Shown here: one piece after another, positions 12,868 through 33,131 of the stretch | Layout of the letters: each line of letters opens with the position of its first letter | How positions within the stretch are numbered: the stretch's first letter is position 1 | Source of the DNA: Solirubrobacteraceae bacterium | GTDB lineage: Bacteria > Actinomycetota > Thermoleophilia > Solirubrobacterales > Solirubrobacteraceae | Direction of reading: 5' to 3' | Length of the DNA stretch: 64,000 nt | Assembly: GCA_049591495.1 (NCBI GenBank) | Contig: JBAWFB010000040.1 | Span: 3,752 to 67,751, forward strand | Notes under the pieces: model-generated | The model's input: only the letters and a program-made list of their open reading frames with translations | What the model was told of the DNA's origin: nothing | Databases searched by the model: none | Position numbers and translations under genes: made by a program

Positions 12868-12995
12868 GGCAATCAACAACAGGGCGTGATGACGGATACC
12901 ATGATCGATCTTCGCCGTCGATGCATGTAGCCCTTGGTCGGCTTTCCCGCCGACCGTCGTCATATACGGCCTGTGGAACCGAACAAAGGCTAGAC

Positions 12996-15401: not shown

Positions 15402-15450
15402 ATCTGGGTAGGTGTGGGGCTGGACGGGTGTGAGGCTGGTGGGCAAAAAC

Positions 15451-16614
15451 TCACGTTCGTGTCGATGAGACCCGCTTCCGAAAGGCACGCAACCGCTCGA
15501 CGTTATCCGCAGGCAGCAGCCGCTTGGTGCTCTGGAGCACCCTTCGACTTGTGACGGCAGGTACGGCATGCGCGAGCGCCAGTGGCAACTGTGACCCAAA
15601 GGGGAGCAACACCTCCCACGTGGCCGCGTCGCTGCCGTTGGCAAAGCTACGCTTGTAGTCAACGCGGCCCCACCCGAGGCTGAAACGATGGTCATTGTGG
15701 CGAAATCCCTGCTCGATGGTGCTCAGCAGCGACAGACGCGCAGGGCTCAGATGCTTGAAGCGTTCGTCCCAACCGACGTTGACACCGATCATCTCACCTC
15801 CTGCCGCGAGGCACAGGTCGGCGCAGATCGGCTCTCCGTTGATCTCGAGCACCAGCAGGCGAAAGCGTTCTTCGGGCAACAACGCTTGCGCCATCTCGCC
15901 GAGCATCAGCGGTAGGCGCTCGCCGAGTGTCACCAGTCGCGATACGCCGCGTCCTTCCCAGCGGGATGAATGCAGCCGCGTGAATGTCTGAATGTCCGCG
16001 GTCACAGTGGCGGGTGTGCTGATTCGCTCGGTCCCACCCTCTTGTTCGAAGCGTCGTCGGGAGCGGCGGCAGTTACCGCGAAAACGTGAGCTGCGCGCCT
16101 GCAGCCACGCGTCGAAAGACTCGTGTTGCAGCGACACGGTTGGAACCTCCAACAGATTGGAGCGGTAGGCAAGGGGGCGCAGGCGTCCCGGCCAGCGTTC
16201 GCGCAACGCCATGGTCCATGGGGACGTCACCGGCAGCGGTCCCAGCTCTATGGCAGATGGCTGTGGCTTTGCTGCAATCAACGTATGTGCCACAGCTTCG
16301 GCGACCTCCCAAACACGATTGGGAAGCGCAAGCGGCGTCACATAGCCTGAGAAATCACTGGCCAGCAGACGGTGGCATCCATTGAGTCCGGGCCTTCCGA
16401 GATCAGTGTATAGGGGCGCTATACCTATCAGCTGTCCCTGATCGTGGACTGCCACAACGCGTAGTTGTGCATCGCGGGGCGCCACGTGACGCCACCATCC
16501 GAGCATCCATGCGGGTCCCGACTCTGGTGCGGCGTTTGCTACGGCGAGCGCATCCCAGGCATCGGAAAGCTTTTCCAATCGAGGCAGGTCGCAAATCAGC
16601 TCCGCCTCGCTCAT
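15451..16614 (-). CDS. Fem/CelD-like (BioF2-like GNAT, Acetyltransf_6-type) transferase, paralogue 1
   Basis: The N-terminus ...WDALAVANAAPESGPAWMLGWWRH and the mid-region FTRLHSSRW are typical of the CelD / FemAB-related EPS-associated family. It is highly similar to paralogue 2. Confidence 0.75.
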   Translation of the reverse strand: MSEAELICDLPRLEKLSDAWDALAVANAAPESGPAWMLGWWRHVAPRDAQLRVVAVHDQGQLIGIAPLYTDLGRPGLNGCHRLLASDFSGYVTPLALPNRVWEVAEAVAHTLIAAKPQPSAIELGPLPVTSPWTMALRERWPGRLRPLAYRSNLLEVPTVSLQHESFDAWLQARSSRFRGNCRRSRRRFEQEGGTERISTPATVTADIQTFTRLHSSRWEGRGVSRLVTLGERLPLMLGEMAQALLPEERFRLLVLEINGEPICADLCLAAGGEMIGVNVGWDERFKHLSPARLSLLSTIEQGFRHNDHRFSLGWGRVDYKRSFANGSDAATWEVLLPFGSQLPLALAHAVPAVTSRRVLQSTKRLLPADNVERLRAFRKRVSSTRT

Positions 16615-17783
16615 CCTGGGCTCCGTCGCACGCGCCTCAAGAGACCCCTGGCCTTCTCGACCTCGTCGTCGGACAATGCTTGTCTGAGGATCCGCCGCAG
16701 CTGACGACTCGTGACGTCAGACGCGAGCAGGGTCTGCGCAAGCCGTGGACTGCCCGGAAGCAACACGCTCTCGGCGACCGGGTTGTTTCCGTCGGCAAAC
16801 CCAAGCTTATAAGCGCTTATTCCCCGCCCGAGACGGTAGCTCGCTTCCCTCCCGAGGCTGTAGCGGTGCTCGTTGCGCGCAAAAGCGTCCTCGAGCGTGT
16901 AAAGCAGGGCCAGGTGCGCGGGGCTGAATTGCTTGAAGCGCTCATCCCAACCGGTGTTGACGCCGACGAGCTCCCCGCCGGCGGCGAGTGTCAGTTGCGT
17001 GCCGACCGGCTCTCCATCCAGTTCGAGCAGCAGCAAGCGGAAGCGCTCAGTGGGAAGGAGTGCCTGCGCCAGATCACCCAGCAATACAGGTAGCCGGTCT
17101 CCCAGAGCCACGAGGCGCGACTCGCCAAGCGGTTGCCAACGGCTGGCGTGCAGAGCTATGAACTTCTGGATATCGGCTGTGACTGTCTCGGCGGTGCTCA
17201 TTCGCGCTGTGCCACCTGCTCGCTCGAACTGCCTGCGCCGCTTACGGGCGTTGGCGCGAAAGCTGGAGCCACGGGTGCTCAGCCACTCTTCCAGGGAGTC
17301 GTGGTGAAGTGAGATTGTCGGCGCATCCGCGACTGAGTGACGCAATACAAGCGGTCGAATACGACCCGGCCAGACGTCGGGGAGCGCAGCAGTCCACAGG
17401 GAATTTGCGGGGAGGGGCGCGAGAGCCAGCGAGCCGAGGCGTGGCTGTGACTGTCGGAGCAACTCCGCGGCCACTTCAGAGACCTCCCATGCTCGATCTA
17501 TCCGTGCCAGTGGCGTCACTGAGGAAGTGAAATCGTGAGCCAGCATCCGATAGCTATGTGGTTCGATGGGCTCTACACAAAGCGGGACGATCCCGATCAG
17601 CTCGTCCTTGTCATGAACTGCCACGACCCGCAGATGTGCGCCGGGTGGCGCCACATGACGCCACCATCCGAGCATCCACGCTGGCCCCGATGTTGGCTCT
17701 GCGTTGGCCACGGCAAGGGCATCCCAGCCCTCTTCCAATGCTTCCAGTCGCCCCGTGTCGGCAATCAGCTCGGCCTCGCTCAT
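16611..17783 (-). CDS. Fem/CelD-like transferase, paralogue 2
   Basis: MSEAELIADTGRLEALEEGWDALAVANAEPTSGPAWMLGWWRHVAP is near-identical in pattern to paralogue 1. Its stop overlaps the start of paralogue 1 by 4 nt. Confidence 0.75.
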   Translation of the reverse strand: MSEAELIADTGRLEALEEGWDALAVANAEPTSGPAWMLGWWRHVAPPGAHLRVVAVHDKDELIGIVPLCVEPIEPHSYRMLAHDFTSSVTPLARIDRAWEVSEVAAELLRQSQPRLGSLALAPLPANSLWTAALPDVWPGRIRPLVLRHSVADAPTISLHHDSLEEWLSTRGSSFRANARKRRRQFERAGGTARMSTAETVTADIQKFIALHASRWQPLGESRLVALGDRLPVLLGDLAQALLPTERFRLLLLELDGEPVGTQLTLAAGGELVGVNTGWDERFKQFSPAHLALLYTLEDAFARNEHRYSLGREASYRLGRGISAYKLGFADGNNPVAESVLLPGSPRLAQTLLASDVTSRQLRRILRQALSDDEVEKARGLLRRVRRSPG

Positions 17784-18946
17784 TCCCGGCCCACTGTATT
17801 TGCTGGGGCCGGCCGACGGTTTGAGGAGCCGTCTGCCGCGCCTTCGGAGGTCATACCGCGTCTACGGCGCAAGGCGTCGGCGAGGGCGGTATTGCGCAAT
17901 CTCAGATCGATCGTGCCGACTGTGCCGACTATCCTGCCTCGCGGCGTGGGGCTCGCGACGACAAGGCGCGTCAACTCCCGGTCGATGGCACCCAAGCGGT
18001 ACTTGTATTCATCGCGCCCCGGACCGAGGTCCAGCTCTGTGCGGCCCTCGACGATCGCTTCGAGGATCGCATGGCGCTCCAGCGAAGACCCTGGGCTGAG
18101 AGCCATGTGGCCCTCGCCAAGGCCGAGCAGATAACTGTGCTCGCGCGGTCCTTGGACGAGGTTTAGGCGCATCACCAGGGTTTGGCCGTCGACCTCCAGG
18201 GTCCACAGCCGAGCCCCTTCGGGTATGAGCCCGCGCACGGCGTCGACGATAAAGCGCTCGTAGCGCGCATCCATGTGCGCGTGGCGCTGACCCTGAGCTC
18301 TCGCCCGCGAGCGGCGCAGGGCCAGCAGCTCCAGTACCGCGGGCTCGATCTCCTCTGGAGCGCACACCAAGCGTGGCGATGCGCCCAGCTCGAGCAGGCG
18401 CCGCCACTTACGGCGCTGAGTGCTGCGCTGCTTGCTCCCGAAGTGCGATTCGAATGTCGCGCCATCCTCCGGGAGCGTGAGAAAGGGCTGGAGTCGAAGG
18501 TCGTGCGCGCTGGCTTTCAGGTTGCCGTGACCATTCAGCAGTTGTTGTGCAAGGCATGAGTTTGTCGGCAAGCGCCTCACGCGCCATACGTCCCACTCCC
18601 GGCGGCGGGCAGCCAGCTCATTCAGCAGCAACGTGCTGAACTCGGGCTCCACGCCGGGAGCGCAAAGCAGGGTGTCGATGCCATTCCAGGTGTCGCCGGC
18701 GAATGTCAGTGTGCGGGCGAGGGGAGTCCGTCTGCACGCAAGCAGTGCAAGACCCAGCAGAGATTCGTCGGAGTCCTCCAGCGAGAGGCACCAGGGTTCC
18801 TGATCATTTCCATAGGCACGCCACCACGCCATGATCCACGCTGGATCGGCAAACGCTGTCGGGAACTCGCTGTTGACAGCGAGCTGACGCCACTCGGCGC
18901 GGCGGCGCTCCAGCTCCTTAAGATCTATCCAGCGACAGGCTCCCAC
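17780..18946 (-). CDS. Fem/CelD-like transferase, paralogue 3 (more divergent)
   Basis: WRQLAVNSEFPTAFADPAWIMAWWRAYG aligns with the paralogues. I prefer the GTG at 18946, which gives 388 aa like the paralogues. The ORF-track start at 19132 would overlap the divergent gene. Its stop overlaps the start of paralogue 2 by 4 nt. Confidence 0.65.
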   Translation of the reverse strand: MGACRWIDLKELERRRAEWRQLAVNSEFPTAFADPAWIMAWWRAYGNDQEPWCLSLEDSDESLLGLALLACRRTPLARTLTFAGDTWNGIDTLLCAPGVEPEFSTLLLNELAARRREWDVWRVRRLPTNSCLAQQLLNGHGNLKASAHDLRLQPFLTLPEDGATFESHFGSKQRSTQRRKWRRLLELGASPRLVCAPEEIEPAVLELLALRRSRARAQGQRHAHMDARYERFIVDAVRGLIPEGARLWTLEVDGQTLVMRLNLVQGPREHSYLLGLGEGHMALSPGSSLERHAILEAIVEGRTELDLGPGRDEYKYRLGAIDRELTRLVVASPTPRGRIVGTVGTIDLRLRNTALADALRRRRGMTSEGAADGSSNRRPAPANTVGRE

Positions 18947-19032
18947 TGCTCGATAGCCTACGGGCTGCTTCAGCAGTTGCGAGGTGCGGGTGCGGGAGAC
19001 TCCCGTCGTCGTTCTCACATAAGGTCTGAGAC

Positions 19033-20139
19033 ATGACCGATCCGGGCGTGGATGCAGGAATTGAGGAGATCGACGAGTCTCGGGACGGGGTTCTAGACGA
19101 CTGGGAGCGGCTGGCCGAGAGCGTTGGAGCAAACCCGTTCCTACACCCGGGATTCGTGCTGGCCTGGCAGCGTGCGTTTGGGCAGGGCCCCCTGTTGCTT
19201 GCCACGATCCGCAGCCGAGGCGAGCTCACCGCCGCTGTGCCGTTGGTCCGTCGTGGTGCGGTGCTTGCGTCTCCGGCCAACTGGCATACTCCGGCGACAG
19301 GTCTGCTCGCACAGGATGACGATGCTGCAACAGCGCTGGCCAAGCTCTTGATCGGGGAGCACCCCCGCCGGATATCGCTTGCGTTTCTCGACAGGAAGGA
19401 TGCGGGCACAACCGCTATCAGCGCCGAGGCTCGCCGTGCGGGATACCGGATTCTCGAACGGACTCTGGCGTCTCCTCCCTATCGCGACCTAGCGGGGGAT
19501 TGGGAGGCCTTTGAATCGGGGATGCGCTCGGACATACGGGGGAACCTGCGCAGACGTCGCCGCCGGCTCGAGGAGCGCGGAGAGGTGTCATACCTTGAAA
19601 GTGACGGACGCGCCAACCTCGATGAGCTGCTCGACGAGGTGGTGCGAGTCGAGGCCATGGGCTGGAAGGGTGAGCAGGGAACGGCGATCGGCTCGCGACC
19701 TGACACGCTGCGCTTCTATCGCGACGTCGCGAGCTGGGCGGCGGATCGAGGGTGGTTGAGGATTCACCTTTTACGCCTCGATGGGCAAGCGCTCGCCGTT
19801 GGGTTTGCGCTACGAGTCGAGGGTGTCCACTATGTGCTCAAGATAGGCTACGACCCCGAATACCGGCAGCTGGCGCCGGGGATGCTGCTGCTGTATGAGC
19901 TTTTCCGTGGCGCTTTCGCCGACGGGCTGCGCCGCGTGGACATGCTGGGCGAGGACGAAAGCTACAAGCGCACCTGGTGCCCCGAGGTGCGTGAATGCAT
20001 AGGTCTACAGGCGTTCTCTCCGTCTGTCCCAGGGCGACTCGATCATCTTGTCTTCACGCAAGGTCGCCCGCTCGCTAAGCGACTTGCAAGCCGGGGGCTG
20101 CTGGGACGGTTTGCCACCACCGACGGCCCGCGTCTGTGA
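19033..20139 (+). CDS. Fem/CelD-like transferase, paralogue 4 (divergently transcribed)
   Basis: It carries DDWERLAESVGANPFLHPGFVLAWQRAFG and WKGEQGTAI, with the same architecture as paralogues 1-3. Confidence 0.7.
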   Translation: MTDPGVDAGIEEIDESRDGVLDDWERLAESVGANPFLHPGFVLAWQRAFGQGPLLLATIRSRGELTAAVPLVRRGAVLASPANWHTPATGLLAQDDDAATALAKLLIGEHPRRISLAFLDRKDAGTTAISAEARRAGYRILERTLASPPYRDLAGDWEAFESGMRSDIRGNLRRRRRRLEERGEVSYLESDGRANLDELLDEVVRVEAMGWKGEQGTAIGSRPDTLRFYRDVASWAADRGWLRIHLLRLDGQALAVGFALRVEGVHYVLKIGYDPEYRQLAPGMLLLYELFRGAFADGLRRVDMLGEDESYKRTWCPEVRECIGLQAFSPSVPGRLDHLVFTQGRPLAKRLASRGLLGRFATTDGPRL

Positions 20140-20168
20140 GCTGGGTGGTCGCCGCCATCAAATGATCG

Positions 20169-22013
20169 TCAAGCGAGATCGGTCGCCACTCCCATGTCTG
20201 TCTCGTGGGAACTGCTCGCGGATGATCTGCGCAGCTCGCGGTTGAGCGCCAAGTCAAGCGCCTTGTGGGCCGAGCGCTGGGACTCGTATGGCCTCAGAGT
20301 GTGATCCCGGCCGGGGATGAGTCTCAAGGTGACGTTCGGCCAGCGATCCAGGTGGTCCAGCCGGCCCTCCAATCCGAGCTCTTCGTGAAGCGGCTCGTTG
20401 CCGGTAAAGAGGAATTGAAGATGCTTGTCGGTGTCGCGGAGCCGATCCAGCGCGCGGTCCAGCTCATCGCCGCCGGAATGACGCGCTCGCCATGCGGCCA
20501 GCCTGCGTTGTGGCAGCACGAGTGGCGCGCGGTAGGCAAGCGTGACCATCCGCCCTGGCGACACCTCCCCGCGCAAGATCTTGGGCCACGAGGACCGGCG
20601 AAGCAATCCTCTGCGAAAGTCGCGGGCGACCTCAATCGAGGGATTCCAGAACAGAGTACGAGGGTTGATCATCAGCGCCGCGACAACCCGCTCGTCCCGT
20701 AGGGCACTGTGGAAAGACCAGTAGGCGCCCGAGCACAGGCCCGTGAGCACAAAGCGCGATTTCAGACCGCGGGCTTCCAGGGTGTCGAGAGCGGCAATCA
20801 CCTGGTCGACCAGCTCTGGAACGTAGAGTTGCCTGAGCTCTGCAAACCGCTGCCCGTCACCGTCGGCATCACCGATGCCCTCCAAATCGAGGCGCAGTGT
20901 CGGTACGCCGTGTGCGCTCCAGCGGCGCGCTGCCTCTACCCACATGCGGTTGGGCCCGATATGGCGGATCCCGCCCGCATTGAGCAGAACTACGCACAAC
21001 TGCTCGGATGGCGTGTCGAGTGGCTCTGACAGGATTCCGAACAGCTGCCCGAAAGGCTGTGCGATTGTCAGCGGTGTCTCGCGAATGCGCGCGCCCGCGA
21101 AATTCAGCTCGATGGTGCTGGATCTCGTCTCCTGTAGAGATGGGGCCGTCGTGGGCTGGGTAAGTGGAGGGTTTGTGGGTTTCGGTGGGCCGCTGTGCAG
21201 CCATGCTTCGACGACGGCGAACGTCTCGGTCGGCGGGCGCGCGAGGTGTGGCTTGGCCATCATCGCGCCGTAGCCGATACCGGCAGCGACCGTCACCTCT
21301 GCGCCTAGCCGCTCGAGGTGATCGCGTAGGCGCGCGTCGGGGCCGATCCCGTCCCGTTCCAACAGGAGCGCACGGCGCAGCAGGCCGGGAGGGATAGTGA
21401 GACTCGCCAGGTCCAGTTCCTGCAGTGCGCGTGTCGTCTCTGCGCTGAGCAGGAAGCCTCCGGCCCCCGTGTAACCCTCAGGAAGCGGCGATGATTCCAG
21501 TTCGCCGGTCGTGTCGCTGAGCTCACCAAACTCGGAGTCCTCGAGTTGGGCAAACACGCGAAGCTCGCGCAGGAATGTGCGCCCACGTGAGGGAACTGCC
21601 CACAGAACGACCTCATCGACCGGGGCGCCTTCGGCGAGCGCCCTGCAGATCACGATGCCTCCCAGGCCGATCCCAATCGCCGTCACCCGGCTCCGTCCGC
21701 TCTCCAAATTCAATCGGGTGGCGGCTGATGTCACCGCGGCTGTCCAGGCCGAGAGCCTCGCTGGATCGCTCATCATGCCGCCACTGTCGCCCGTGCTGGG
21801 CAGATCGATGCGCAGGACCGGGTGACCAGCGGCTGCCAGCTGTTCGGCCCAATTTCGGCGGCTGCGGTAGGAGCAGATGTCATCCCACCCGAAGGGCGGA
21901 CACAGCAGGACGGCTGTGGTATCGCCGGGATCCTCTGCGGGTAGGTGCAAGAGCCCGAATACAGGCTCGGCTCCATCCTGAATGTAGATCGGGCTTGCCG
22001 CCGGCGCGTTCAC
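20169..22013 (-). CDS. Fused tandem alpha/beta-hydrolase-fold protein (two hydrolase-like halves)
   Basis: Half 1 reads AVLLCPPFGWD...VTAIGIGLGGIVI. Half 2 reads LCVVLLNAGGIRHIGPNRMW...FVLTGLCSGAYWSF. Both halves resemble the paired dedicated hydrolases of exosortase-A EPS loci. That resemblance is from memory and needs an HMM check. Confidence 0.7.
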   Translation of the reverse strand: MNAPAASPIYIQDGAEPVFGLLHLPAEDPGDTTAVLLCPPFGWDDICSYRSRRNWAEQLAAAGHPVLRIDLPSTGDSGGMMSDPARLSAWTAAVTSAATRLNLESGRSRVTAIGIGLGGIVICRALAEGAPVDEVVLWAVPSRGRTFLRELRVFAQLEDSEFGELSDTTGELESSPLPEGYTGAGGFLLSAETTRALQELDLASLTIPPGLLRRALLLERDGIGPDARLRDHLERLGAEVTVAAGIGYGAMMAKPHLARPPTETFAVVEAWLHSGPPKPTNPPLTQPTTAPSLQETRSSTIELNFAGARIRETPLTIAQPFGQLFGILSEPLDTPSEQLCVVLLNAGGIRHIGPNRMWVEAARRWSAHGVPTLRLDLEGIGDADGDGQRFAELRQLYVPELVDQVIAALDTLEARGLKSRFVLTGLCSGAYWSFHSALRDERVVAALMINPRTLFWNPSIEVARDFRRGLLRRSSWPKILRGEVSPGRMVTLAYRAPLVLPQRRLAAWRARHSGGDELDRALDRLRDTDKHLQFLFTGNEPLHEELGLEGRLDHLDRWPNVTLRLIPGRDHTLRPYESQRSAHKALDLALNRELRRSSASSSHETDMGVATDLA

Positions 22014-24595
22014 TCGGACTCCTCAGCTGAGGCGATGCGTATGCGTCCATTGAGATTCAAAGCGGTCAACGCGCCTCCGCTGAAGGCAACGCCTGGCTCC
22101 TGCGGACGCAGGCGTACGACGCGTCTTCCACCGGGCTCGATCGAGAAGCCATCGTCGTCTGGTAGGAAGCCGGACGTGTGAATCTCGACGCCGTAGGCCA
22201 GGCGAGTGCTTGTGAGGATCAATAGCACGCTCCCATCGGCAAGTGCTTGCGTCGTCTGTGCGGCCAAGCCCAGGTGCTCGGGGCGCTCGCGCTCGAGCGG
22301 TCGTCCGGCGGGGAAGCGCAGTGTCTGGGAGATGACACTGCCCTCCTCGCCCTCGTCTCCCTCGAGCGTTGCGACGATCGTGTCCTGGCCCGGGGGGGCG
22401 AAGCGGTAGGACCATCCGGCATCGACAAAGTGGCCGATGACCGTCTCGACGTTCCATTCCGCCTGGCTGTGTGCGCCCAGCTCGACCGGTACTCGCGCCT
22501 CCTCGACGCGGTACTCGCGTTCCCTGTAGAGCGCCACGCGCAGAGACGCGCTCAGCGGCTTCGGACTGTCATTGGCTACGTGTACGACGATGCCTCCCAA
22601 CTGCTCGTCGATGGTCCACACGGCGACCGGTGCCAGTACGCGCTTGAGGTGGTAGTAGGCGATCTTTGGGATGCCCTGGTGGTCGACCAAGCCCCAACCA
22701 GCCCCGGGCAAGAGATCGTGCAGCCATAGCACCAGTCCGCCCCCGCACGGCGATGCGTCCCGACGCCACTCACCGAACACCTCAGCCAGGATCTCGCCGG
22801 TGAGCGCGCGCGAGAGCCCCAGATAGCGTGCGCGATCCACGTGGCGAAGCTCCGGCGCGTCAACGTCGAATAGAAGGCGCAGGTAGTGGTCGCGGATGTC
22901 CTCGAAATCCCAGTCGGCTTCGTTCTCGCGCGGGACGCCCGCCTTCCATAGGGGGTGATGGCCAGCGAGCTGTCCGGGCGCCTGCGGGTACATCGCCTCG
23001 ATGGTCGTTTCGGCGGGCACGTGGGAGAAGGCAAGGCACTCCGCAGCGAAGCGCACCTTTGCGCGACGGACGTTCTCCAGCGGAAGCTTGTAGCAGCCCA
23101 CGCCGTAATAGGTGCCGACGCCTCGATCCACTCGGAAGGGAAGCTCACCTCCGAACGGCGCTGACGGAAGATAGGCGGCGTCCACTTTACTGTCGCTTAC
23201 GAGTTGGGGGATCAGCTCTCCAAACAGCTCCCCGCGCCCGAGCGCGGGGTCCAGCCCCATCATCGCCACCTGCTGCTCGACCTCGCTGTTGCCGCACAGG
23301 ACGGCCAGGCTTGGGCGGCCGCCCAGCGCGGCGAGTGTGCCGGCGACCTCGCGCGTGACGCTCGCACGAAACTGCTCATCTGCGATTGGGTAGTCGAGAT
23401 TGGCGAACATGAAGTCCTGCCAGACCAAAATGCCAAGCTCATCGCAGAGATCATGGAAGGCGCTGGTCTCGTATGCGCCGGTACCCGGCAGTCGCAGCAT
23501 GTTCATGCCGGCGTCGCGCACGCGTTCCAATTCCACGCAAAGCGCGTCGGTCGAGGGGGCCAGCCCCACAGGATCGATGGGTGTCCATACCGCGCCGCGC
23601 GCGAACATGCGAACGCCATTGACGTGCAGATCCAAGCCGTCGTGCTCTATGTCGTGTTCTGCTCGCGCTCCGAAGGCGAGGTCCCGGAAACCGACCCTGC
23701 CGGCGTTGACCGTGCTTGTGTTTTGTGCGCCGGTGATCTGAAGGCGCACGTCGTGTAGCGCCGGTTCGCCATGAGTGTGGGGCCACCACCGCGCCACTTC
23801 CGGCACATGCAGCTCGCCTCGCACGGCGAAGAGCCCCTCTCTGGGATCTTCGGCCGCGCTCACCTCAAGTTGACAATTGTGTGTTCCAGAAGGTCCGCTC
23901 AGCTGAACTTCCACGGAGCCCACTCCACCTCCGTCCAACGCACGCAGTTGGGCCAGCACCGAGAGCACTCCATCCTCACCCTCCAGACGCGGGCGCAGGA
24001 TGAGCTCCTGCACGTCGATGTGTCGTCGGCGCTCAAGTCGCACGGCCCGCCACGGGCCGACGCTTGCCGGTCCTGGTGCGATGCCTGGGAGGCGGCCAAG
24101 CAGCATGGTGCGAAAGAAACGCAGGTTGCCGTCGGCGACCAGTGGAGCACGCCAGCGTGCGCGGGGTCGACGGCGCACACCCAGCAGTGGTCTGAGCGCA
24201 CGACAGCGGATCGCCAGCTCGTTCCCCGTGCTCAAATGCTCTGCGATGTCGAGCGCATGGGGCTCGAACATCGAGGTACTTTCGAGTATTAACTCTCCGT
24301 TAAGATATACATCAGCTACCGTCGCGATCCCGTCTAGGTGCAGGATCACATCTTCACCAGGCTGCGCCGGTGGAGTTTCGAAGTTGGTGCGAAACCACCA
24401 ATCCTCGGCGTCGAAGTCATATGGCTCGCCTGGGTGCCACAGCCCTGCATCGTGCAGAGCACCAGCCGCGGTACCGGGTATTCGTGCCGGAATCCAGTTC
24501 AACGCTTCGATGCTTGAGGCATCGACATGCAAGTCTGGCGCCGACCGGGCCGCCTGCCAGCCGACCGACAGGTGATACAGCTCATGGTCGTCCAC
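22010..24595 (-). CDS. Glycoside hydrolase family 2 (beta-mannosidase-like), no signal peptide
   Basis: Motifs are EDWWFRTNF, LHLDGIATVADVYLNGELI and NMLRLPGTGAYETSAFHDLCDELGILVWQDFMFAN. Its stop overlaps the start of the hydrolase gene by 4 nt. Confidence 0.85.
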   Translation of the reverse strand: MDDHELYHLSVGWQAARSAPDLHVDASSIEALNWIPARIPGTAAGALHDAGLWHPGEPYDFDAEDWWFRTNFETPPAQPGEDVILHLDGIATVADVYLNGELILESTSMFEPHALDIAEHLSTGNELAIRCRALRPLLGVRRRPRARWRAPLVADGNLRFFRTMLLGRLPGIAPGPASVGPWRAVRLERRRHIDVQELILRPRLEGEDGVLSVLAQLRALDGGGVGSVEVQLSGPSGTHNCQLEVSAAEDPREGLFAVRGELHVPEVARWWPHTHGEPALHDVRLQITGAQNTSTVNAGRVGFRDLAFGARAEHDIEHDGLDLHVNGVRMFARGAVWTPIDPVGLAPSTDALCVELERVRDAGMNMLRLPGTGAYETSAFHDLCDELGILVWQDFMFANLDYPIADEQFRASVTREVAGTLAALGGRPSLAVLCGNSEVEQQVAMMGLDPALGRGELFGELIPQLVSDSKVDAAYLPSAPFGGELPFRVDRGVGTYYGVGCYKLPLENVRRAKVRFAAECLAFSHVPAETTIEAMYPQAPGQLAGHHPLWKAGVPRENEADWDFEDIRDHYLRLLFDVDAPELRHVDRARYLGLSRALTGEILAEVFGEWRRDASPCGGGLVLWLHDLLPGAGWGLVDHQGIPKIAYYHLKRVLAPVAVWTIDEQLGGIVVHVANDSPKPLSASLRVALYREREYRVEEARVPVELGAHSQAEWNVETVIGHFVDAGWSYRFAPPGQDTIVATLEGDEGEEGSVISQTLRFPAGRPLERERPEHLGLAAQTTQALADGSVLLILTSTRLAYGVEIHTSGFLPDDDGFSIEPGGRRVVRLRPQEPGVAFSGGALTALNLNGRIRIASAEESE

Positions 24596-24628
24596 GCGGG
24601 CGAGCGTACTTGACGCCGACGCGAATCG

Positions 24629-25615
24629 CTAGTCGGCGAGCGCGTCGTCGAGCCTACCCATTGCCTCTTCCCATCCAGTCGCAAGCTTCCTCAACGTCTC
24701 CGCGGGCTCGAAGGCACGACGACGGGCGAGTCTGAAAGAGAGAATCTTGCACCCCTCGACGATGCTTCGCAACGCCTCGGAGGCGCCGGTGGCACGCTCG
24801 CCCAGCAGCCACTCCGCCTGAGTGGCCGCGACCTCGAAAGCGGAGCCGGCCATCCTCACGGTGGCAAATGCGTAGGCGTGATACTCGCTCGCATCGCCCT
24901 CCAGCAGGCGAGGCAGATCCTGCTCCAGCTGCGCGCCGAAGCGTACGAACGGGTTGGAGGTGGGCCGCTGCGCAAGATGTCCGCGCAGCAGCGTCTGCGC
25001 GCGGTCGCGCAGATCGGCGTCGCGCAGTGGTTGAGCAGCGTCGAAACGTACGAGCTCGGTATAGGGGGGGAGAACATCCTCGGAGAACTCGCGTCCGAGG
25101 CGAAACACGCCGCGATAGTCCTCGCCGGCCAGCTCATATAGACCCGTCGCATGGAAGTAGCGCAGCCGCTCCCCAACTGGGTCGATGCCCTCGACCGCAA
25201 CAGAGGTCTTGACGTGTTCGCTGCGATAGCTGGTGGCTGCCGTGTCGGGCAGATACCAGGAGTCCAGCTCGACGATCAGCGTTCGGCCCTCTGCGATCTG
25301 CTCGGCGGCCTGCTGTGGCAATGGCCGATAGGGCTGCATCTCGTGTACGTCAATCCCGAACAGCAGCTCGAGATCCTCGACGAAAGGCTTGAAGAATGTC
25401 CACTGGTCGCCCTCGAAGTCCATCCGCACTGTGCAGCCCATGGCCGCCAGCGGCTCTTGGCCGCGGGCGTGCAGCAGCTCGATCAGGACGTCCGTGTAGC
25501 AGTTGGTTTCCACATAAGTCCGCTCCGGGGCGTGGATCGGATGGGAACGGTAGTTCGCCGGGTCGAGCCCGGTGAGGCTCACGAGTCCAGTGGCAGAGGC
25601 GCTCATGTCTCCCAT
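24629..25615 (-). CDS. DUF1839-like protein (family that accompanies amino acid:carrier-protein ligases)
   Basis: 328 aa with the N-terminal motif YVETNCYTDVLIELLH. It overlaps the ligase gene by 13 nt. The family assignment is from memory of neighbourhood annotation and has not been searched. Confidence 0.6.
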   Translation of the reverse strand: MGDMSASATGLVSLTGLDPANYRSHPIHAPERTYVETNCYTDVLIELLHARGQEPLAAMGCTVRMDFEGDQWTFFKPFVEDLELLFGIDVHEMQPYRPLPQQAAEQIAEGRTLIVELDSWYLPDTAATSYRSEHVKTSVAVEGIDPVGERLRYFHATGLYELAGEDYRGVFRLGREFSEDVLPPYTELVRFDAAQPLRDADLRDRAQTLLRGHLAQRPTSNPFVRFGAQLEQDLPRLLEGDASEYHAYAFATVRMAGSAFEVAATQAEWLLGERATGASEALRSIVEGCKILSFRLARRRAFEPAETLRKLATGWEEAMGRLDDALAD

Positions 25616-26535
25616 AGTTGGCCACTAACCTCAGCCGGCCACGATTGGAGATCGAATCCGTGTGTGTTAAAGAGCGCGATCGTGATTCGCTCGAGGCCAA
25701 ACCCGAGACAGGCTGTGTGTGCCTCGGTGCCGTCAGCCAAGCGAATACCGTAGGCGGCCGTGAAGTGCTCCTGGTGGTAGTTGAACGACGCCACGGCAGT
25801 AGGCTCGGGACCCGCGATTTGAGTGAGCACCTCGAACTTAAGCTGCTGCTCGCGTTGGCTGGCTGCGAGCATCCGGCCGCTGCGCCCGAAGAACGGATCG
25901 CTGGCGACCTCCAGCTTGACCTCCAGGCCGATGCGGCCCAGCAGCACGACCGCGCGGTTGCGCCACATATCGCGCCAGGCTTGGACTGTCTCGGGCTCGG
26001 CGATGCGGACGATCTCGCGCTGATGAAACATCTGCATCCGCGCCGGATCGCCGGAGGGCTCGTGACGAAAGACGTATGAGCCGCCAGCGTCGATCGTGAC
26101 ACCACCTGCCGCCAAGGGCCCGCGGGCGGCGATTGCCGGATACACCGGGTAGCAGGCGGCCGGAGTCAGGACGAGATCGGTCATGCCCTGAAACTCGCTC
26201 CAGTCCTCGTGCTTGCTCGCGCGCTCGTGCTGCTCGGCGGCCTGGCTCTCGGAGCCTTCAAACGAGAAGATGCTGCCCGCGAGGTGGGGAAACGATTTGA
26301 GATAACCGACGGTCTCCAGATCATGGCGAGGCATCACGGGTGGGAAGCGCAACTGCTCGGGCTCCTCAGATACGCCGGTGCGTGTCACAAGGGCGGCGAC
26401 GCGCTCGCGCACATCCTCGAAGTCGCTGCCGCGGCCGTACACGCCGGCGACCCCTGTCTCGATCAGCAGACGGTGCTCGACGAGCGCCGACAGCAGCGCT
26501 GTCTGGTCAGCTGTACCCGGGCGATAGCCCGGCAT
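25603..26535 (-). CDS. Amino acid--[acyl-carrier-protein] ligase (truncated class-II, SerRS-like aminoacyl-tRNA synthetase homologue)
   Basis: The 310 aa comprise a catalytic core only. Class II motif 2 is YVFRHEPS and motif 3 is ACLGFGLERITIALF. Putative Zn ligands are TPAACYP, the Glu in FRHE and HTAC. No tRNA-binding or anticodon domain is present. Confidence 0.8.
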   Translation of the reverse strand: MPGYRPGTADQTALLSALVEHRLLIETGVAGVYGRGSDFEDVRERVAALVTRTGVSEEPEQLRFPPVMPRHDLETVGYLKSFPHLAGSIFSFEGSESQAAEQHERASKHEDWSEFQGMTDLVLTPAACYPVYPAIAARGPLAAGGVTIDAGGSYVFRHEPSGDPARMQMFHQREIVRIAEPETVQAWRDMWRNRAVVLLGRIGLEVKLEVASDPFFGRSGRMLAASQREQQLKFEVLTQIAGPEPTAVASFNYHQEHFTAAYGIRLADGTEAHTACLGFGLERITIALFNTHGFDLQSWPAEVSGQLWET

Positions 26536-27710
26536 TAGACGTCCTTGGCGATCAGCAGCAGACTGGCGTTGGTCTGATGGATCCGCTCGTTGGCGACCAT
26601 CAGACAGGCAGACATCGTGTCGCGAAGGTGGCGCCCCACGCTGAAGGGAGTGTCGTTCTTGAAGCCCATGATCCCGCAGACCCCGAGCGCGCCCTGGCAG
26701 ACACGGGGAGCCTGCTCGGAGGCTGCGATCTTCAGGTTGTTGAAACGCAGCGCCAACGCCATCGTGGAGAGCCGCTCGCGGCCAGGCTCCGCAGAGGCCT
26801 CGGTGAATTCACCGAGTGCCGAGGAGACCTCCGCGCGGAGCAGCGAGAGGTCGCTCATTAGGTGCGACAACCTCAGGGCGACCGGCGGCGTCTCGCCCGG
26901 CTTGCGCTTGGCGGCCGCACGCACGAACGCCCGTGCACGGTCGAAGGCGTCGGTCGCGATGCCCAGCCACAGGTGCGACCAGAGAATGTGCGACACCGGC
27001 ACCATCGACTCGGCCGACACGCGCGGAAACGGCGTTGGCAGTACCTGCTCGGGCTCGATTGTGGCGCGGACCACATACCCGGGCGAGCAGGTTCCGCGCA
27101 TCCCAAGAGGATCCCACGTGCCGCTGGGATCGAGTGAGAGCTGCTCTTTGCGGGCCAGCGCGATGACCTGGTCGCTTGGCTCCGCGTCCGGGGAGCGCCG
27201 GAGCGTTACAAACAGATCGTCGGCGTGTGCGCCGTAGCTGACGGTTGGAGCCTGCTTCTCAAACGCACACGACCCGTCTTCGCCCGGGGTGATGGCTGCG
27301 ACCGAGCTTCCCATGTCGCCACCCGTGCCCACCTCTGAGGTCACCGATGCAATCAGTCGTTGCTCGCGGGAGACGGTTTGGAGGTAGTCCTCAAACCACG
27401 GGGCGCTGTCGAGATGGCGAGCGATCGAGATGACCTGGATCTGGTGCATCGCAAACACCATCGCAGTCGCGCCACAGCGGCGCCCCAGCTCAAAGCAGGC
27501 AGTCGCGATCGTCTCGAATGCGATACCGCCACCGCCGAGCTCGGTTGGGATAAACGCCGACAACGCCTGCTCGGCGCGCAGCGCCTCGATCGCCTCGAAC
27601 GGAAAGCGCGCGTCGCGGTCCACCGCCCCGGCGTTGGGTGCGGCAACGTTATCTGCGATGCGAACTATGGCGTCGAGAAACGCCTGATCGTGGTCCACTG
27701 ACACGCTCAT
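26535..27710 (-). CDS. Acyl-CoA dehydrogenase family flavoprotein (probably acting on a carrier-protein-bound substrate)
   Basis: It has ACAD N-terminal, middle and C-terminal architecture (DRDARFPFEAIEALRAEQALSAFIP...; TSEVGTGGD; WSHLWLGIATDAF). The TAATG junction overlaps the ligase start. Confidence 0.85.
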   Translation of the reverse strand: MSVSVDHDQAFLDAIVRIADNVAAPNAGAVDRDARFPFEAIEALRAEQALSAFIPTELGGGGIAFETIATACFELGRRCGATAMVFAMHQIQVISIARHLDSAPWFEDYLQTVSREQRLIASVTSEVGTGGDMGSSVAAITPGEDGSCAFEKQAPTVSYGAHADDLFVTLRRSPDAEPSDQVIALARKEQLSLDPSGTWDPLGMRGTCSPGYVVRATIEPEQVLPTPFPRVSAESMVPVSHILWSHLWLGIATDAFDRARAFVRAAAKRKPGETPPVALRLSHLMSDLSLLRAEVSSALGEFTEASAEPGRERLSTMALALRFNNLKIAASEQAPRVCQGALGVCGIMGFKNDTPFSVGRHLRDTMSACLMVANERIHQTNASLLLIAKDV

Positions 27711-27958
27711 GAGACCGACGTCTCGGCTCGGAGCTCCTCAAGAGCCTGCTCGATTGCCGAAATGCTTTCGAACACGCTGCGCTTGAGCATGCGGTCGGGG
27801 AACTCGACGTCGAAATGGTCCTCGAGTGCGAGCATCACGTTTACGCTGGCGTGAGAGGTCATACCTGCGTGATAGAGGTCAGCGTCGGGCGTGAGCGCAC
27901 TCACGTCGACGGATAGACGCCCGTGTTCGGCGACGATACGGCGGATATCTTCGGTCAT
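27707..27958 (-). CDS. Acyl/aminoacyl carrier protein
   Basis: The motif DLYHAGMTSHASVNVMLALEDHFDVEF places the phosphopantetheine Ser about 35 residues from the ATG at 27958. The ORF-track start at 27985 is a TTG. It overlaps the ACAD gene by 4 nt. Confidence 0.8.
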   Translation of the reverse strand: MTEDIRRIVAEHGRLSVDVSALTPDADLYHAGMTSHASVNVMLALEDHFDVEFPDRMLKRSVFESISAIEQALEELRAETSVS

Positions 27959-27995
27959 GAACTCATCATCGGAACTTCTTTGCAATGACTCAAGT

Positions 27996-28373
27996 CTAAC
28001 TTTGCGCGATCACGATCGCCGATGCATAATCCGCCTCATGGCAGATACTGAGCTCGAAGTCTGTCAGCTCCGCCTCAGCCGCCAAGGCCGCCGCGCGCCC
28101 GCTCAGCTCCAAGGTAACCCATCCAGCGCCGTGGCGCAGCACCTCGATGCAGGACCAGGGGATCGCCTCGTCCACCGGGCGCAGCACCTTGAGAGTGGCC
28201 TCCTTGGCCGCGAAGCGGGCTGCAACGCGCTCGGGTATGAGTCCCTGAGCGGTCTCGCAGTCGCGCAGCTCGCGTTCGGTGTAGATGCGCTTCAGGTAGC
28301 GAGCACCGTGATCGCGGATTGATTCACGCACCGCTTCTACCGATACCATGTCGATCCCTACACGCAGAGCCAT
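27996..28373 (-). CDS. acpS: Holo-[acyl-carrier-protein] synthase (4'-phosphopantetheinyl transferase, AcpS type)
   Basis: 125 aa with MALRVGIDMVSVEAV...RIYTERE...AARFAAKEATLKVL...ELSICHEADYASA. Confidence 0.85.
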   Translation of the reverse strand: MALRVGIDMVSVEAVRESIRDHGARYLKRIYTERELRDCETAQGLIPERVAARFAAKEATLKVLRPVDEAIPWSCIEVLRHGAGWVTLELSGRAAALAAEAELTDFELSICHEADYASAIVIAQS

Positions 28374-28509
28374 ATCGTCGGGATCCTCGCAGATCCGATC
28401 CCTGATTGGTGGCGTTCAGTGTTTGCGGAGATGCAAGCATTGGCCAGCAGCGATCTTGAGGAGATGAACCGTCGATGAACATAGGCGCACAGCGAGAAGG
28501 TTCTCTCCA

Positions 28510-29397
28510 ATGAGCTTTAGAGCCGGCGCCGCGAGCGCTCGGGCGTTCGCTCGCACGGCCGCCGTCGAGCCCGAAGCTCTGGCGATCCTAACCTGTGCTG
28601 TATCTGGTGGGGTAGTCACGGGTAACCCCAACCAGCCGGTCACCCGAGAGGACGTGATCAGAGAGGCAGTCGCTGCCGCGGAGGCTGGGGCCAGCGTCGT
28701 GCACATCCATGCACGTACGACGGCTGGCGGGATGACTCAGTCCCTCGAGGACTACCTCGCGATCAAGCAGGCAATCCGCGAGCAGGTTGCCGACATCGTT
28801 CTGAACTTCACCACAGGCGGGGAGCTGGAGGCTCCCGTCGAGGAGCGCCGGCTCTCGTTGATGGCGCAACCCGAGCTTGCGACGATTGTCTGTGGCAGCA
28901 TGAACTTCGGCCCAAGCGATGATCTGCTGTTGAATCCAAGGTCGCTGATCATCGAGCTGGCCAAGGAGATGGCCCAGCGCGAGATCGTGCCGGAGTATGA
29001 GTGCTTCGATCTCGGCATGACGATCGCCGCAGCCAAGCTTACGACCTCGGCGGGCGGGCCAAGCGGAATGATTCACATGATTCTCGGCGCGATGGGTGGT
29101 GCTCCGGCGAGTGCGGCGACGATCTCGCTTTTTGCCGGACTCCTGCCTGCGGGCGTTCCATGGACAGTGACGGCGATTGGCCGGCACTTCCCGATGATGG
29201 CGGTCACCCTTGCCCTTGGTGGCCATATCCGCACGGGTCTTGAGGACGTGCTCTACTGTGCGCCGGGCGAGTACGCAGAGTCCAATGCGCAGCTCGTCAA
29301 GCGTGCGAAGGCGATGTGCGAGAGCGTCGGTCGGCCCGTGGCGACACCTGCGCAGGCCCGCGAGATCCTCGGGATCGGCGTCGAGTTGGGAGCTTGA
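28510..29397 (+). CDS. BKACE family enzyme (3-keto-5-aminohexanoate cleavage enzyme-like, DUF849)
   Basis: Motifs are ILTCAVSGGVVTGNPNQPVTREDVIREAVAAAEAGASVVHIHAR and LNFTTGG. The exact start is uncertain. Confidence 0.8.
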   Translation: MSFRAGAASARAFARTAAVEPEALAILTCAVSGGVVTGNPNQPVTREDVIREAVAAAEAGASVVHIHARTTAGGMTQSLEDYLAIKQAIREQVADIVLNFTTGGELEAPVEERRLSLMAQPELATIVCGSMNFGPSDDLLLNPRSLIIELAKEMAQREIVPEYECFDLGMTIAAAKLTTSAGGPSGMIHMILGAMGGAPASAATISLFAGLLPAGVPWTVTAIGRHFPMMAVTLALGGHIRTGLEDVLYCAPGEYAESNAQLVKRAKAMCESVGRPVATPAQAREILGIGVELGA

Positions 29398-33091: not shown

Positions 33092-33131
33092 CGGAGGTTG
33101 CGCTCCTGTCCCCCAAACCACGAGAGACACG

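Follow-up and report, generated by a model that had tools for sequence, protein, structure and literature searches.

The 64,000-nucleotide stretch of DNA analysed here (the window) comes from a Solirubrobacteraceae MAG. It contains a polysaccharide locus with CpsB, a BY-kinase, Wzy, Wzx, four GT4 and two GT2 genes and a NodB/HfsH-like deacetylase, whose best NCBIfam match is HfsH at a score far under the cut-off of that model. Inspection of the open reading frames and their junctions revealed, inside this locus, seven minus-strand genes in the order AcpS, carrier protein (CP), ACAD-like flavoprotein, ligase, DUF1839, GH2 glycosidase and double alpha/beta-hydrolase (Table 1). The spacings from AcpS to the hydrolase are +10, -4, -1 (TAATG), -13, +33 and -4 nt. 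The preliminary description had read the ligase, ACAD-like, DUF1839, GH2 and double-hydrolase genes as one tight operon, and the junctions agree with this; the seven genes and their overlaps are as it gave them, and its family assignments were upheld by profile searches. No signal peptide or transmembrane segment was predicted in any cassette protein.

Table 1. Genes of the cassette and its neighbourhood, in positions of the window.
Feature	Position	Strand	Evidence
AcpS-type phosphopantetheinyl transferase, heading the operon	27996..28373	-	PF01648, TIGR00556
Dedicated carrier protein (CP)	27707..27985	-	NF005480, PF00550
ACAD-fold flavoprotein	26535..27710	-	PF02771 + PF00441
Amino acid:[carrier protein] ligase	25603..26535	-	NF005479
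DUF1839, candidate papain-like transacylase	24629..25615	-	PF08893, AF2 model, Foldseek
GH2 glycosidase, beta-mannosidase type	22010..24595	-	PF22666 + PF00703
Double alpha/beta-hydrolase fusion	20169..22013	-	sub-threshold TIGR03101/TIGR03100, AF2 model
BKACE-family gene, divergent from AcpS	28510..29397	+	PF05853, 251 bits
NodB/HfsH-like polysaccharide deacetylase	12103..12963	-	PF01522, 89 bits
Acetyltransf_6 (CelD/Fem-like GNAT) paralogue 1	15451-16614	-	PF13480
Acetyltransf_6 paralogue 2	16611-17783	-	PF13480
Acetyltransf_6 paralogue 3	17780-about 18946	-	PF13480
Acetyltransf_6 paralogue 4	19033-20139	+	PF13480

Conservation was assessed in 66 related loci, all long enough to hold the entire cassette. 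The same gene order was found there for CP in 65 loci, the ACAD-like gene in 62, DUF1839 and GH2 in 59 each and the hydrolase in at least 53. The cassette occurs in Actinomycetota, Chloroflexota, Acidobacteriota and Alpha- and Betaproteobacteria, and is annotated too in replicons of Azospirillum, Mycetohabitans, Caballeronia and Phyllobacterium. Recurrence of an identical gene order across phyla places the arrangement far beyond chance; the conserved unit is the seven-gene cassette around the tRNA-synthetase-like ligase.

The AcpS protein matches PF01648 (52 bits) and TIGR00556 (68 bits, cut-off 45), and its gene adjoins the cassette in 46 of the 66 loci; none was found beside the proteobacterial copies. 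CP scores 110 bits against NF005480 (cut-off 72) and also matches PF00550. Its phosphopantetheine site is Ser44 (codon 27854-27856) within the motif GMTSH, and conservation of G41, S44 and H45 reaches at least 95% among 76 orthologues. The ligase covers positions 17-317 of the 318 in NF005479 at 407 bits (cut-off 357) and, judged by its sequence, consists of a class II catalytic core of SerRS type without a tRNA-binding domain; its zinc ligands are C128, E159 and C276, with Cys/Glu/Cys invariant in 81 of 81 sequences. A ligase of this kind with its own CP and AcpS had been proposed before, and the NF005479, NF005480 and PF01648 matches bear it out.

Bll0957 of Bradyrhizobium diazoefficiens, which is paired with Bsr0959, and Agrobacterium Atu2573 belong to the same ligase family (Mocibob et al., 2010, 2013; PDB 3mey, 4h2w). 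The ligase shares 46% identity with Bll0957 (3mey, E 1e-79) and the same zinc ligands; the two CPs fall in one family (NF005480), and the counterpart of the ACAD-like gene, bll0958, adjoins bll0957. The cassette is the same kind of operon as bsr0959-bll0958-bll0957, the role of which is termed unknown in the literature. Unlike that system, it is actinobacterial, is headed by AcpS and lies inside a Wzx/Wzy locus. Bll0957 is a biochemically characterised Gly/Ala:CP ligase (PMC5370406), and homology suggests that Gly or Ala would be loaded here as well. Only this loading is characterised for the rhizobial system; we found no discussion of the downstream genes in the literature, and what becomes of the loaded CP continues to be termed unknown (PMC9437257), as the preliminary description had held.

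DUF1839 is likely the transferase of the cassette and a far better candidate than the four CelD-like genes nearby, since it is co-extensive with the ligase and its predicted fold is that of papain-like enzymes using CP-bound substrates. DUF1839 and the ligase have 65 plasmid or chromid records each, with nearly identical genus distribution and adjacent coordinates. The protein matches PF08893 (330 bits), and its AF2 model (pLDDT 86, pTM 0.87) retrieved AziU3/U2 (E 6e-8), CcbD (3e-6) and CtaG (2e-5) from the PDB with Foldseek, at TM 0.5-0.6 over the whole length and ahead of any protease; its structural relatives are natural-product enzymes throughout. This likeness is at fold level only (11-16% identity): none of the three was recovered when PDB sequences were searched with a profile, and Pfam BtrH_N was not matched. 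To our knowledge AziU3/U2, the top match, is not known as a transacylase.

CcbD forms a Cys acyl-enzyme, transfers a CP-tethered amino acid to the nitrogen of an amino sugar and recognises the CP through an Arg-rich helix (PMC12945683). CcbD and LmbD, the lincosamide condensation enzymes, use an aminoacyl-S-CP carrying proline or propylproline as donor and the amine of an amino sugar as acceptor, with Arg residues recognising the CP. They share with DUF1839 the papain-like fold, in which the nucleophilic Cys is N-terminal and the C-terminal half is helical, whereas sequence similarity is undetectable, an adenylation enzyme of NRPS type rather than an aaRS homologue loads their donor, and they have no GH2, ACAD or double-hydrolase partner. 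The two-domain architecture of DUF1839 is also that of the CtaG/BtrH/AsbE class, in which a Cys acyl-enzyme mediates ping-pong transfer from a stand-alone CP; BtrH, a butirosin (aminoglycoside) enzyme, is described as taking its donor from a PCP and using a free acceptor (PMC12865890). Here, too, the likeness is structural only and the pathway context differs. Within DUF1839, Cys39 (codon 25499-25501) and H134 are invariant in 71 of 71 orthologues and H155 in 70 of 71, and T/S137 is conserved. These residues agree with a proposed C-(T/S)-H triad (PMC10318531), which would differ from the Cys-His-Glu used by CcbD and from the Cys-His-Glu/Asp pattern that CcbD and CtaG represent. Also conserved is a basic patch (L-A-R-R-R, 296-300); its invariant R298-R300 may be analogous to the CP-recognising Arg residues of CcbD/LmbD.

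The CelD-like genes had been put forward as the users of the loaded CP, with aminoacyl-S-CP replacing aminoacyl-tRNA as donor for four Fem/CelD-like paralogues that aminoacylate exopolysaccharide sugar amines. All four match PF13480 (70-123 bits) and directly adjoin the cassette here and in its closest relative, L001; such genes flank it in a few arrangements elsewhere (L005, L006, L040, L045, L048, L049), and SbzI provides an example of a GNAT using a CP-tethered acyl donor (PMC11685415). Across the 66 loci, however, just 4 have an Acetyltransf_6 gene at 10 kb or less from the ligase. CelD-like genes are missing in close relatives with 81-84% identical ligases (L085, L087 and L088), at all six proteobacterial loci examined and in the loci without DUF1839, which would be expected to hold a replacement transferase. 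They also form separate transcription units in the window: the three minus-strand genes, linked by 4-nt overlaps, make up their own unit about 1 kb from the cassette (the third probably starts at GTG 18946 or 19018, not at TTG 19132), and the plus-strand gene runs convergent with it. None of the four proteins matched TIGR03019 at E <= 0.01, FemAB_like scored 18.6 (cut-off 27), and no solved relative was found by sequence. The CelD-like genes are locus-specific neighbours outside the conserved cassette, and their use of the loaded CP appears improbable. The PF13480 and PF08893 assignments suggested earlier were recovered; TIGR03019 gave no match, and TIGR03100 and TIGR03101 stayed below their cut-offs.

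The exosortase-A (PEP-CTERM) gene set, to which kinship had also been suggested, comprises an ACP, an AMP-ligase, hydrolases 1 and 2 and a FemAB-related protein (TIGR03100, TIGR03101, TIGR03019) and resembles the cassette in placing a CP, a ligase and an alpha/beta-hydrolase pair beside polysaccharide genes. The best NCBIfam matches of the double hydrolase are hydr2_PEP for the N half and hydr1_PEP for the C half, both scoring 70 bits where TIGR03101 and TIGR03100 require 203 and 168. In the cassette the two hydrolase units form one fused protein, the ligase comes from another superfamily and TIGR03019 is unmatched; no exosortase was seen among the scanned window genes. The kinship therefore reduces to the sub-threshold similarity of the hydrolase halves. 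According to the preliminary description the exosortase-A hydrolase pair co-occurs with a FemAB-related protein, which would speak for the CelD-like proteins as acceptors of aminoacyl-CP; the pair also accompanies an ACP and a ligase, which would speak for the hydrolase itself as main consumer of the loaded CP, by transfer or oligomerisation through its Cys, with DUF1839 and GH2 as accessories. The oligomerisation idea is modelled on PHA synthase, and a phaR mutant shows raised bll0957 and bll0958.

The AF2 model of the hydrolase (pLDDT 84) has two a/b domains. The N-terminal half carries Gly116 at the nucleophile position (Gly in 50 of 57), and the C-terminal half a Cys427-Glu540-His571 triad (Cys 58/58, His 57/58, Glu 57/58); the copies from Azospirillum, Mycetohabitans and Phyllobacterium show the G-x-C-x-G elbow too. 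DUF1839 and GH2 are missing from six loci that retain CP, ligase and hydrolase, and the primary partner may therefore be the hydrolase. Against this, it is the least conserved cassette member (median identity 43-45% versus 63-70% for the others), Caballeronia lacks its gene and Phyllobacterium has it on the other strand, Foldseek gave generic esterases only, and DUF1839 tracks the ligase more closely (65 records, compared with 58 for the hydrolase). We consider a leading role of the hydrolase quite unlikely.

The ACAD-like protein carries both N- and C-terminal ACAD domains; its nearest solved relatives, all weak (E 1e-13 to 1e-9), are ACAD type 2, DszC, nitrososynthases and SCAD. The position equivalent to the YEG Glu of MCAD is V, I or L in 74 of 74 orthologues, and E/D375, three residues later, is conserved; the canonical Glu base is missing from the flavoprotein. 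It presumably modifies the CP-tethered residue. The GH2 protein, with N-terminal and Ig-like domains (PF22666, PF00703), aligns with BtMan2A (2vqu, E 7e-48), its GNSE and AAE motifs matching the acid/base and the nucleophile; the catalytic E438 and E519 are intact and invariant in 64 of 64 orthologues. Since the search for export signals was negative, this glycosidase is cytoplasmic.

At about even odds (a probability near 0.5), we propose that Gly/Ala-S-CP is modified by the flavoprotein and then passed by DUF1839 to an amine acceptor, probably a sugar. AcpS would turn CP into its holo form, and the zinc-dependent, SerRS-derived ligase would activate a small amino acid and thioesterify it onto CP. 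The tethered residue would probably be oxidised or oxygenated by the ACAD-fold flavoprotein; Cys39 of DUF1839 would then accept the acyl group and hand it to the amine acceptor in a ping-pong reaction like that of CcbD/LmbD and CtaG, and as described for BtrH. The catalytically intact beta-mannosidase-type GH2 suggests that acceptor or product is a glycoside. The Cys-His-Glu hydrolase half may serve a further step that depends on a thioester, be it transfer, release or proofreading, with the nucleophile-less N-terminal half as a non-catalytic partner. Because the cassette lies inside a Wzx/Wzy locus together with a NodB/HfsH-like deacetylase, which may supply the free sugar amine, the likeliest candidate acceptor here would be a de-N-acetylated amino sugar that belongs to the lipid-linked repeat unit or to a precursor. 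A simple decoration model needs neither a cytoplasmic glycosidase nor a double hydrolase, which counts against this explanation.

Similar logic is known elsewhere. The Dlt system (DltA/DltC/DltB/DltD) and Vibrio AlmEFG load D-Ala or Gly onto a small dedicated CP and transfer it to an envelope glycopolymer or glycolipid, using ANL-family ligases and membrane acyltransferases (MBOAT, LpxL-like); the ligase of the cassette is instead aaRS-derived, and its proteins have no membrane segment. Nod-factor synthesis (NodC, NodB, NodA, NodF) couples cytoplasmic sugar de-N-acetylation to re-N-acylation from a dedicated CP, and within a few kb of the cassette the window has a NodB/HfsH-like deacetylase and GT2 genes. 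DUF1839 and NodA are unrelated, though, the Nod donor is a fatty acyl group, and a NodB-type gene occurs within 10 kb in only 12 of the 66 loci, sometimes immediately 3' of the hydrolase gene.

The setting itself allows a different reading, in which the cassette is an autonomous small-molecule pathway apart from the polysaccharide, its product being an N-aminoacyl amino sugar, a glycoside or another amide, and its position in Solirubrobacterales polysaccharide loci is incidental or due to shared sugar precursors. The embedding in a Wzx/Wzy locus beside a deacetylase, as first described, is seen again in roughly half of the relatives from Actinomycetota and Chloroflexota. As a raw count, 32 of the 66 loci have polysaccharide genes at a distance of 10 kb or less, 22 of them at least two kinds, with varying arrangements. 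No such genes were found within 12 kb at five of six proteobacterial loci, so the link may be lineage-specific or coincidental; the Cupriavidus copy has a Wzc-like kinase nearby, which favours the link. The cassette moves between phyla as a unit, occurs on plasmids and chromids, and stands alone in Azospirillum, Mycetohabitans, Caballeronia and Phyllobacterium, with no glycosyltransferases nearby and an MFS efflux gene, a LuxR regulator or a TonB receptor among its neighbours. The cytoplasmic location of all its proteins and the natural-product relatives of DUF1839 point the same way, yet the cassette has no genes making a sugar or other acceptor and must therefore use a common cellular substrate. 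We regard such a pathway as possible and less probable than aminoacyl transfer by DUF1839 to a sugar amine.

Upstream of AcpS, the BKACE-family gene scores 244 bits against the Kce model, under its cut-off of 382, and its synteny with the cassette is limited to close Solirubrobacteraceae relatives (L001, L003, L005, L021, L085, L087).

The seven packed minus-strand genes of the preliminary description were recovered as the same open reading frames with the same junctions when the sequence was read again, with spacings between successive genes of +10, -4, -1 (TAATG), -13, +33, and -4 nt. The family proposed for each cassette gene was upheld by profile searches, and the surroundings were confirmed to be a Wzx/Wzy-type polysaccharide locus containing CpsB, a BY-kinase, Wzy, Wzx, four GT4 and two GT2 genes. 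Neither a hydrophobic segment nor a signal peptide was found in any cassette protein; the chemistry is therefore expected to be cytoplasmic. A promoter and terminator scan of positions 15300-29500 gave sites no commoner than in shuffled sequence and was thus unusable for defining transcription units.

Features of the window, with the recurrence of the cassette genes among 66 related loci. CP, carrier protein; ACAD, acyl-CoA dehydrogenase; aa:CP ligase, amino acid:[carrier protein] ligase.
Feature	Position	Strand	Basis	Loci (of 66)
Cassette, seven genes	28373 down to 20169	-	ORF list and junction sequences	
AcpS	cassette	-	PF01648	46
CP	cassette	-	NF005480, 110 bits (cut-off 72); serine in GMTSH	65
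ACAD-like protein	cassette	-	PF02771, 45 bits, and PF00441, 24 bits, each above cut-off	62
aa:CP ligase	cassette	-	NF005479, 407 bits (cut-off 357)	
DUF1839 protein	cassette	-	PF08893, 330 bits	59
GH2 protein	cassette	-	profile search	59
Double hydrolase	cassette	-	614 aa, two alpha/beta-hydrolase folds fused	at least 53
CelD-like genes, four	15451-20139		PF13480, passed by all four	
Polysaccharide deacetylase	surrounding Wzx/Wzy locus		NodB/HfsH-like	
BKACE-family gene	28510-29397	+	Kce model, 244 bits (below cut-off 382)	
S8 peptidase	31571-33514	-	T7SS mycosin model, 196 bits (below cut-off 279)	
P1B ATPase, then DUF5134 gene	33857-37264	-	copper-type ATPase with HMA domain	
Collagen-repeat ORF	39809-40546	-	245 aa; triple-helix repeats, PF01391, E 1e-9	
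GGDEF + HD_5 protein	42944-45211	-	HD-GYP-like	
GGDEF + HD_5 protein, neighbour of the preceding	45917-47644	-	HD-GYP-like	

The ligase is a class II SerRS-type catalytic core of 310 residues without a tRNA-binding domain. SerRS models matched it in their C-terminal catalytic part only (positions 347-504 of 518), and the match to NF005479, an equivalog model, spans positions 17-317 of 318. It aligns to residues 30-327 of Bll0957 with 46% identity; C128, E159, and C276, invariant in 81 of 81 sequences, align with the Cys, Glu, and Cys of Bll0957 that reportedly bind the active-site zinc (Mocibob 2010). A sequence identical to the window ligase has been recorded from a Solirubrobacteraceae MAG. 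A CP gene of the NF005480 type lies two genes upstream of the ligase. Ligases of the Bll0957 type use Gly or Ala (PMC5370406) and form, with the CP, a known family whose biological role is called unknown (PMC9437257), as is the role of the loaded CP in a 2022 review. In the literature searched, no account of downstream partners of the ligase and CP was found, and the locus tags Bll0957, Atu2573, and relatives were mentioned in omics papers only. The ACAD-like gene bll0958 adjoins the characterised ligase gene bll0957 in B. diazoefficiens (PMC10888616), which makes the window operon one of the type studied by Mocibob and colleagues; ligase family, dedicated CP family, and ACAD-like neighbour are common to both. 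Expression of both bll0957 and bll0958 is reported to rise about 3-fold under microaerobiosis when phaR is mutated, and PhaR motifs are predicted upstream (PMC10888616).

The window ligase was aligned with Bll0957 and relatives before species-representative genomes were searched, and at least 597 matching stretches were obtained. Eighty loci from these matches formed the comparison set; the ORFs of the set were compared first with the window proteins and afterwards with profiles built anew from the first-round matches. Enough sequence on both sides of the ligase was available in 66 of the loci. The gene order (AcpS)-CP-ACAD-ligase-DUF1839-GH2-hydrolase was kept almost always across the 66 loci, which come from Solirubrobacterales, Gaiellales, Chloroflexia, Anaerolineae, Limnocylindrales, Acidobacteriota, and Alphaproteobacteria. 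The cassette also occurs on annotated secondary replicons of Azospirillum, Mycetohabitans rhizoxinica, Caballeronia (without the hydrolase), and Phyllobacterium (hydrolase on the opposite strand). In the plasmid collection, DUF1839 and a Bll0957-type ligase (E <= 1e-60) were each found in 65 records, with near-identical genus distributions and adjacent coordinates in the records listed.

DUF1839, a family of 861 clusters at 50% identity, has been classed as papain-like with a proposed permuted C-(T/S)-H triad, and a role in glycan processing has been guessed from gene context (PMC10318531). In the AlphaFold model built from 32 homologues (pLDDT 86, pTM 0.87), an alpha/beta domain at the N-terminus precedes a long helical one, with helices across residues 199-327; the CcbD/LmbD, CtaG, BtrH, and AsbE class has this two-domain fold, a papain-like domain at the N-terminus and a helical one at the C-terminus. 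When the model was compared with the PDB by Foldseek, full-length matches ranked ahead of any protease: AziU3/U2 (E 6e-8), CcbD (E 3e-6), and CtaG (E 2e-5), all with TM 0.5-0.6 and the latter two with probability 1.0. Cys39 is invariant in 71 of 71 sequences and has the location expected of the nucleophile, close to the N-terminus where a helix (39-50) begins in the model. Also invariant are His134 and His155, and position 137 holds Thr or Ser throughout, the class triad being Cys-His-Asp/Glu; a further invariant patch, L-A-R-R-R, occupies positions 296-300. CcbD and LmbD form an amide bond between an amino sugar and a CP-tethered amino acid via a Cys acyl-enzyme, and the CP is recognised through an Arg-rich helix (PMC12945683). 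PF08893 was the sole Pfam match of DUF1839 at E <= 0.01, with no BtrH_N, and phmmer and profile searches of PDB sequences returned spurious armadillo-repeat and kalirin matches but no CcbD/CtaG-class enzyme, so that the link between them is structural only. We put the chance that DUF1839 is the consumer of the loaded CP at about even. Several DUF1839 cluster-representative proteins appear as ligase-DUF1839, DUF1839-GH2, or ligase-DUF1839-GH2 polypeptides (P0429, P0475, P0455, P0430, P0383, P0368, and P0485); these could be true fusions or merged calls of overlapping genes.

The preliminary description had assigned the consuming step to the CelD-like proteins, as transferases taking aminoacyl-S-CP as donor for decoration of an exopolysaccharide. 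This is chemically possible, since a GNAT that uses a CP-tethered donor exists in SbzI (PMC11685415). The four genes do adjoin the cassette but lie outside its operon: one is on the plus strand, convergent with the cassette, and the remaining three, each overlapping the next by 4 nt, make up a unit of their own at a distance of about 1 kb (judged from the sequence, the third probably starts at 18946 or 19018 rather than 19132). The suggested FemAB-related model TIGR03019 gave no match at E <= 0.01 in any of the four proteins, FemAB_like (PF04339) reached 18.6 against a cut-off of 27 in one, and the best CelD-like protein had no match among PDB sequences. The proposal failed the conservation test. 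Only 4 of the 66 loci (7 of 80 in the first-pass search) carry an Acetyltransf_6 gene at up to 10 kb from the ligase, and the six proteobacterial loci examined carry none. Relatives whose ligase is 81-84% identical have no such GNAT beside the cassette, which is followed directly either by NodB, GT4, and Wzx together or by a GT4 and a Mannosyl_trans2 gene.

The remaining cassette enzymes were inspected for their catalytic residues. The ACAD-like protein retains both N- and C-terminal ACAD domains and is highly conserved in sequence; Val, Ile, or Leu occupies the position of the MCAD-type catalytic Glu (YEG) in 74 of 74 orthologues, and a Glu or Asp is conserved three residues beyond, the YEG position having been placed by eye against MCAD. 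Its nearest solved relatives are type-2 ACAD proteins, DszC, nitrososynthases, and SCAD, all about equally distant; it may be either a dehydrogenase or an oxygenase. The GH2 protein aligns with the beta-mannosidase BtMan2A over ∼650 residues, and its E438 and E519, invariant in 64 of 64 orthologues, match the Glu residues of GNNE and SE-FG, the acid/base and the nucleophile. The two halves of the double hydrolase (AlphaFold model, pLDDT 84) differ at the nucleophile elbow. Gly stands there in 50 of 57 sequences of the N-terminal half, which also lacks a conserved His and is unlikely to be catalytic; in the C-terminal half the elbow, G-x-C-x-G, holds an invariant Cys, and a His and a Glu are conserved as well. 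The proteobacterial copies follow the same nucleophile pattern. A fold search with the model returned more than 1200 generic alpha/beta-hydrolases (esterases, lipases, and PETases) without functional discrimination. Membership of the two halves in the exosortase-A hydrolase families was rejected, as the scores lie far below the cut-offs (TIGR03100, 70.0 against 168; TIGR03101, 69.8 against 203); tblastn of the C-terminal half against plasmids yielded no annotated exosortase-A hydrolase for comparison of the nucleophile.

DUF1839 and GH2 are missing from six variant loci (L010, L024, L056, L058, L079, and L080), in which the CP, the ligase, and the double hydrolase are kept; four of the six also lack the ACAD-like gene. 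These loci suggest a model in which the hydrolase, rather than DUF1839, is central to the fate of the loaded CP, but no other member of the cassette is as poorly conserved or as inconstant as the hydrolase.

The association with exopolysaccharide loci claimed for the window held for part of the relatives. Counting GT4, GT2, Wzx, NodB, BY-kinase, and CpsB, polysaccharide-type genes occur within 10 kb in 32 of the 66 loci, and their enrichment near the cassette, counted without a genome-matched background, is an impression, not a statistic. At least two kinds are present in 22 of the 32, in several different arrangements, and a NodB-type deacetylase lies within 10 kb in 12 of the 66. Around the proteobacterial copies examined such genes are rare, a Wzc-like kinase in Cupriavidus being the only polysaccharide-type neighbour. 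An autonomous small-molecule pathway would agree with the surroundings of the proteobacterial copies and with the cassette's mobility, although it leaves the repeated polysaccharide neighbourhoods unexplained.

The boldest reading, to which we give a probability of roughly 0.3, is a phylum-spanning thiotemplate pathway in which DUF1839, supplied by an aaRS-derived ligase, acts as a papain-like transacylase and N-aminoacylates a sugar or glycan. In our best explanation of the cassette, AcpS would prime the CP, the ligase would load it with Gly or Ala, and the ACAD-like flavoprotein would modify the tethered residue; DUF1839 would then accept the acyl group on Cys39 and hand it to an amine. A sugar acceptor is favoured because of the GH2 partner and the CcbD and BtrH precedents, and a glycan is proposed only tentatively. 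In the window MAG, a de-N-acetylated polysaccharide unit would be a reasonable acceptor given the deacetylase and glycosyltransferases of the locus.

Papain-like enzymes that N-acylate amino sugars from a CP are known in lincosamide biosynthesis (CcbD/LmbD), and to their logic the cassette adds an aaRS-derived loader, a non-canonical ACAD-fold protein, a GH2, and a Cys hydrolase. The Dlt and AlmEFG systems differ in using an ANL-family ligase and a membrane-embedded acyltransferase, whereas the cassette has an aaRS-type ligase and proteins free of hydrophobic segments. No description of a phylum-spanning CP-ACAD-like-ligase-DUF1839-GH2-hydrolase pathway was found in the literature searched. 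Structures and kinetics of aa:CP ligases have been known since 2010, and the enzymes are cited as connecting ribosomal with non-ribosomal peptide synthesis. The cassette matters mainly because the question of their function becomes directly testable: the ligase is part of a constant gene set found in at least 597 species-level genomes, many of the organisms carrying it are plant, fungal, and insect symbionts that can be cultured, and a candidate next step after CP loading is named in DUF1839 as a Cys-dependent transacylase. If correct, the N-aminoacylation pathway would supply the missing biological role of aa:CP ligases and, were the acceptor an amino sugar, would point to an enzyme class installing aminoacyl substituents on bacterial amino sugars or polysaccharides.

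The plasmids and chromids with the cassette belong for the most part to bacteria associated with plants, fungi, and insects (Rhizobium, Azospirillum, Mycetohabitans, Caballeronia, and Burkholderia). On pRL7 of Rhizobium leguminosarum (L081), IS110, IS5, and IS4 elements surround the cassette, the ACAD-like gene is broken into three pieces, and the GH2 gene is cut short; this looks like a decaying copy. The chromid of Cupriavidus metallidurans CH34 (L084) has two DUF1839 copies, at 10928-11908 (+) and 15689-16936 (-) of the locus, and its Wzc-like BY-kinase lies ∼8 kb downstream of the ligase. Plasmids of Streptomyces, Bacillus, Apilactobacillus, and Clostridium carry more distant ligase homologues (23-32% identity), unaccompanied by DUF1839.

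In the window, the BKACE-family gene is divergent from AcpS and keeps its place beside the cassette only among close relatives in the Solirubrobacteraceae (L001, L003, L005, L021, L085, and L087). The S8 peptidase ORF has a long N-terminal extension that is probably non-coding; S8 genes recur on the same side of the cassette in several relatives, and the variant gene sets of L010 and L024 adjoin runs of S8 peptidase ORFs. The P1B ATPase/DUF5134 pair marks the right-hand boundary of the polysaccharide and cassette region.
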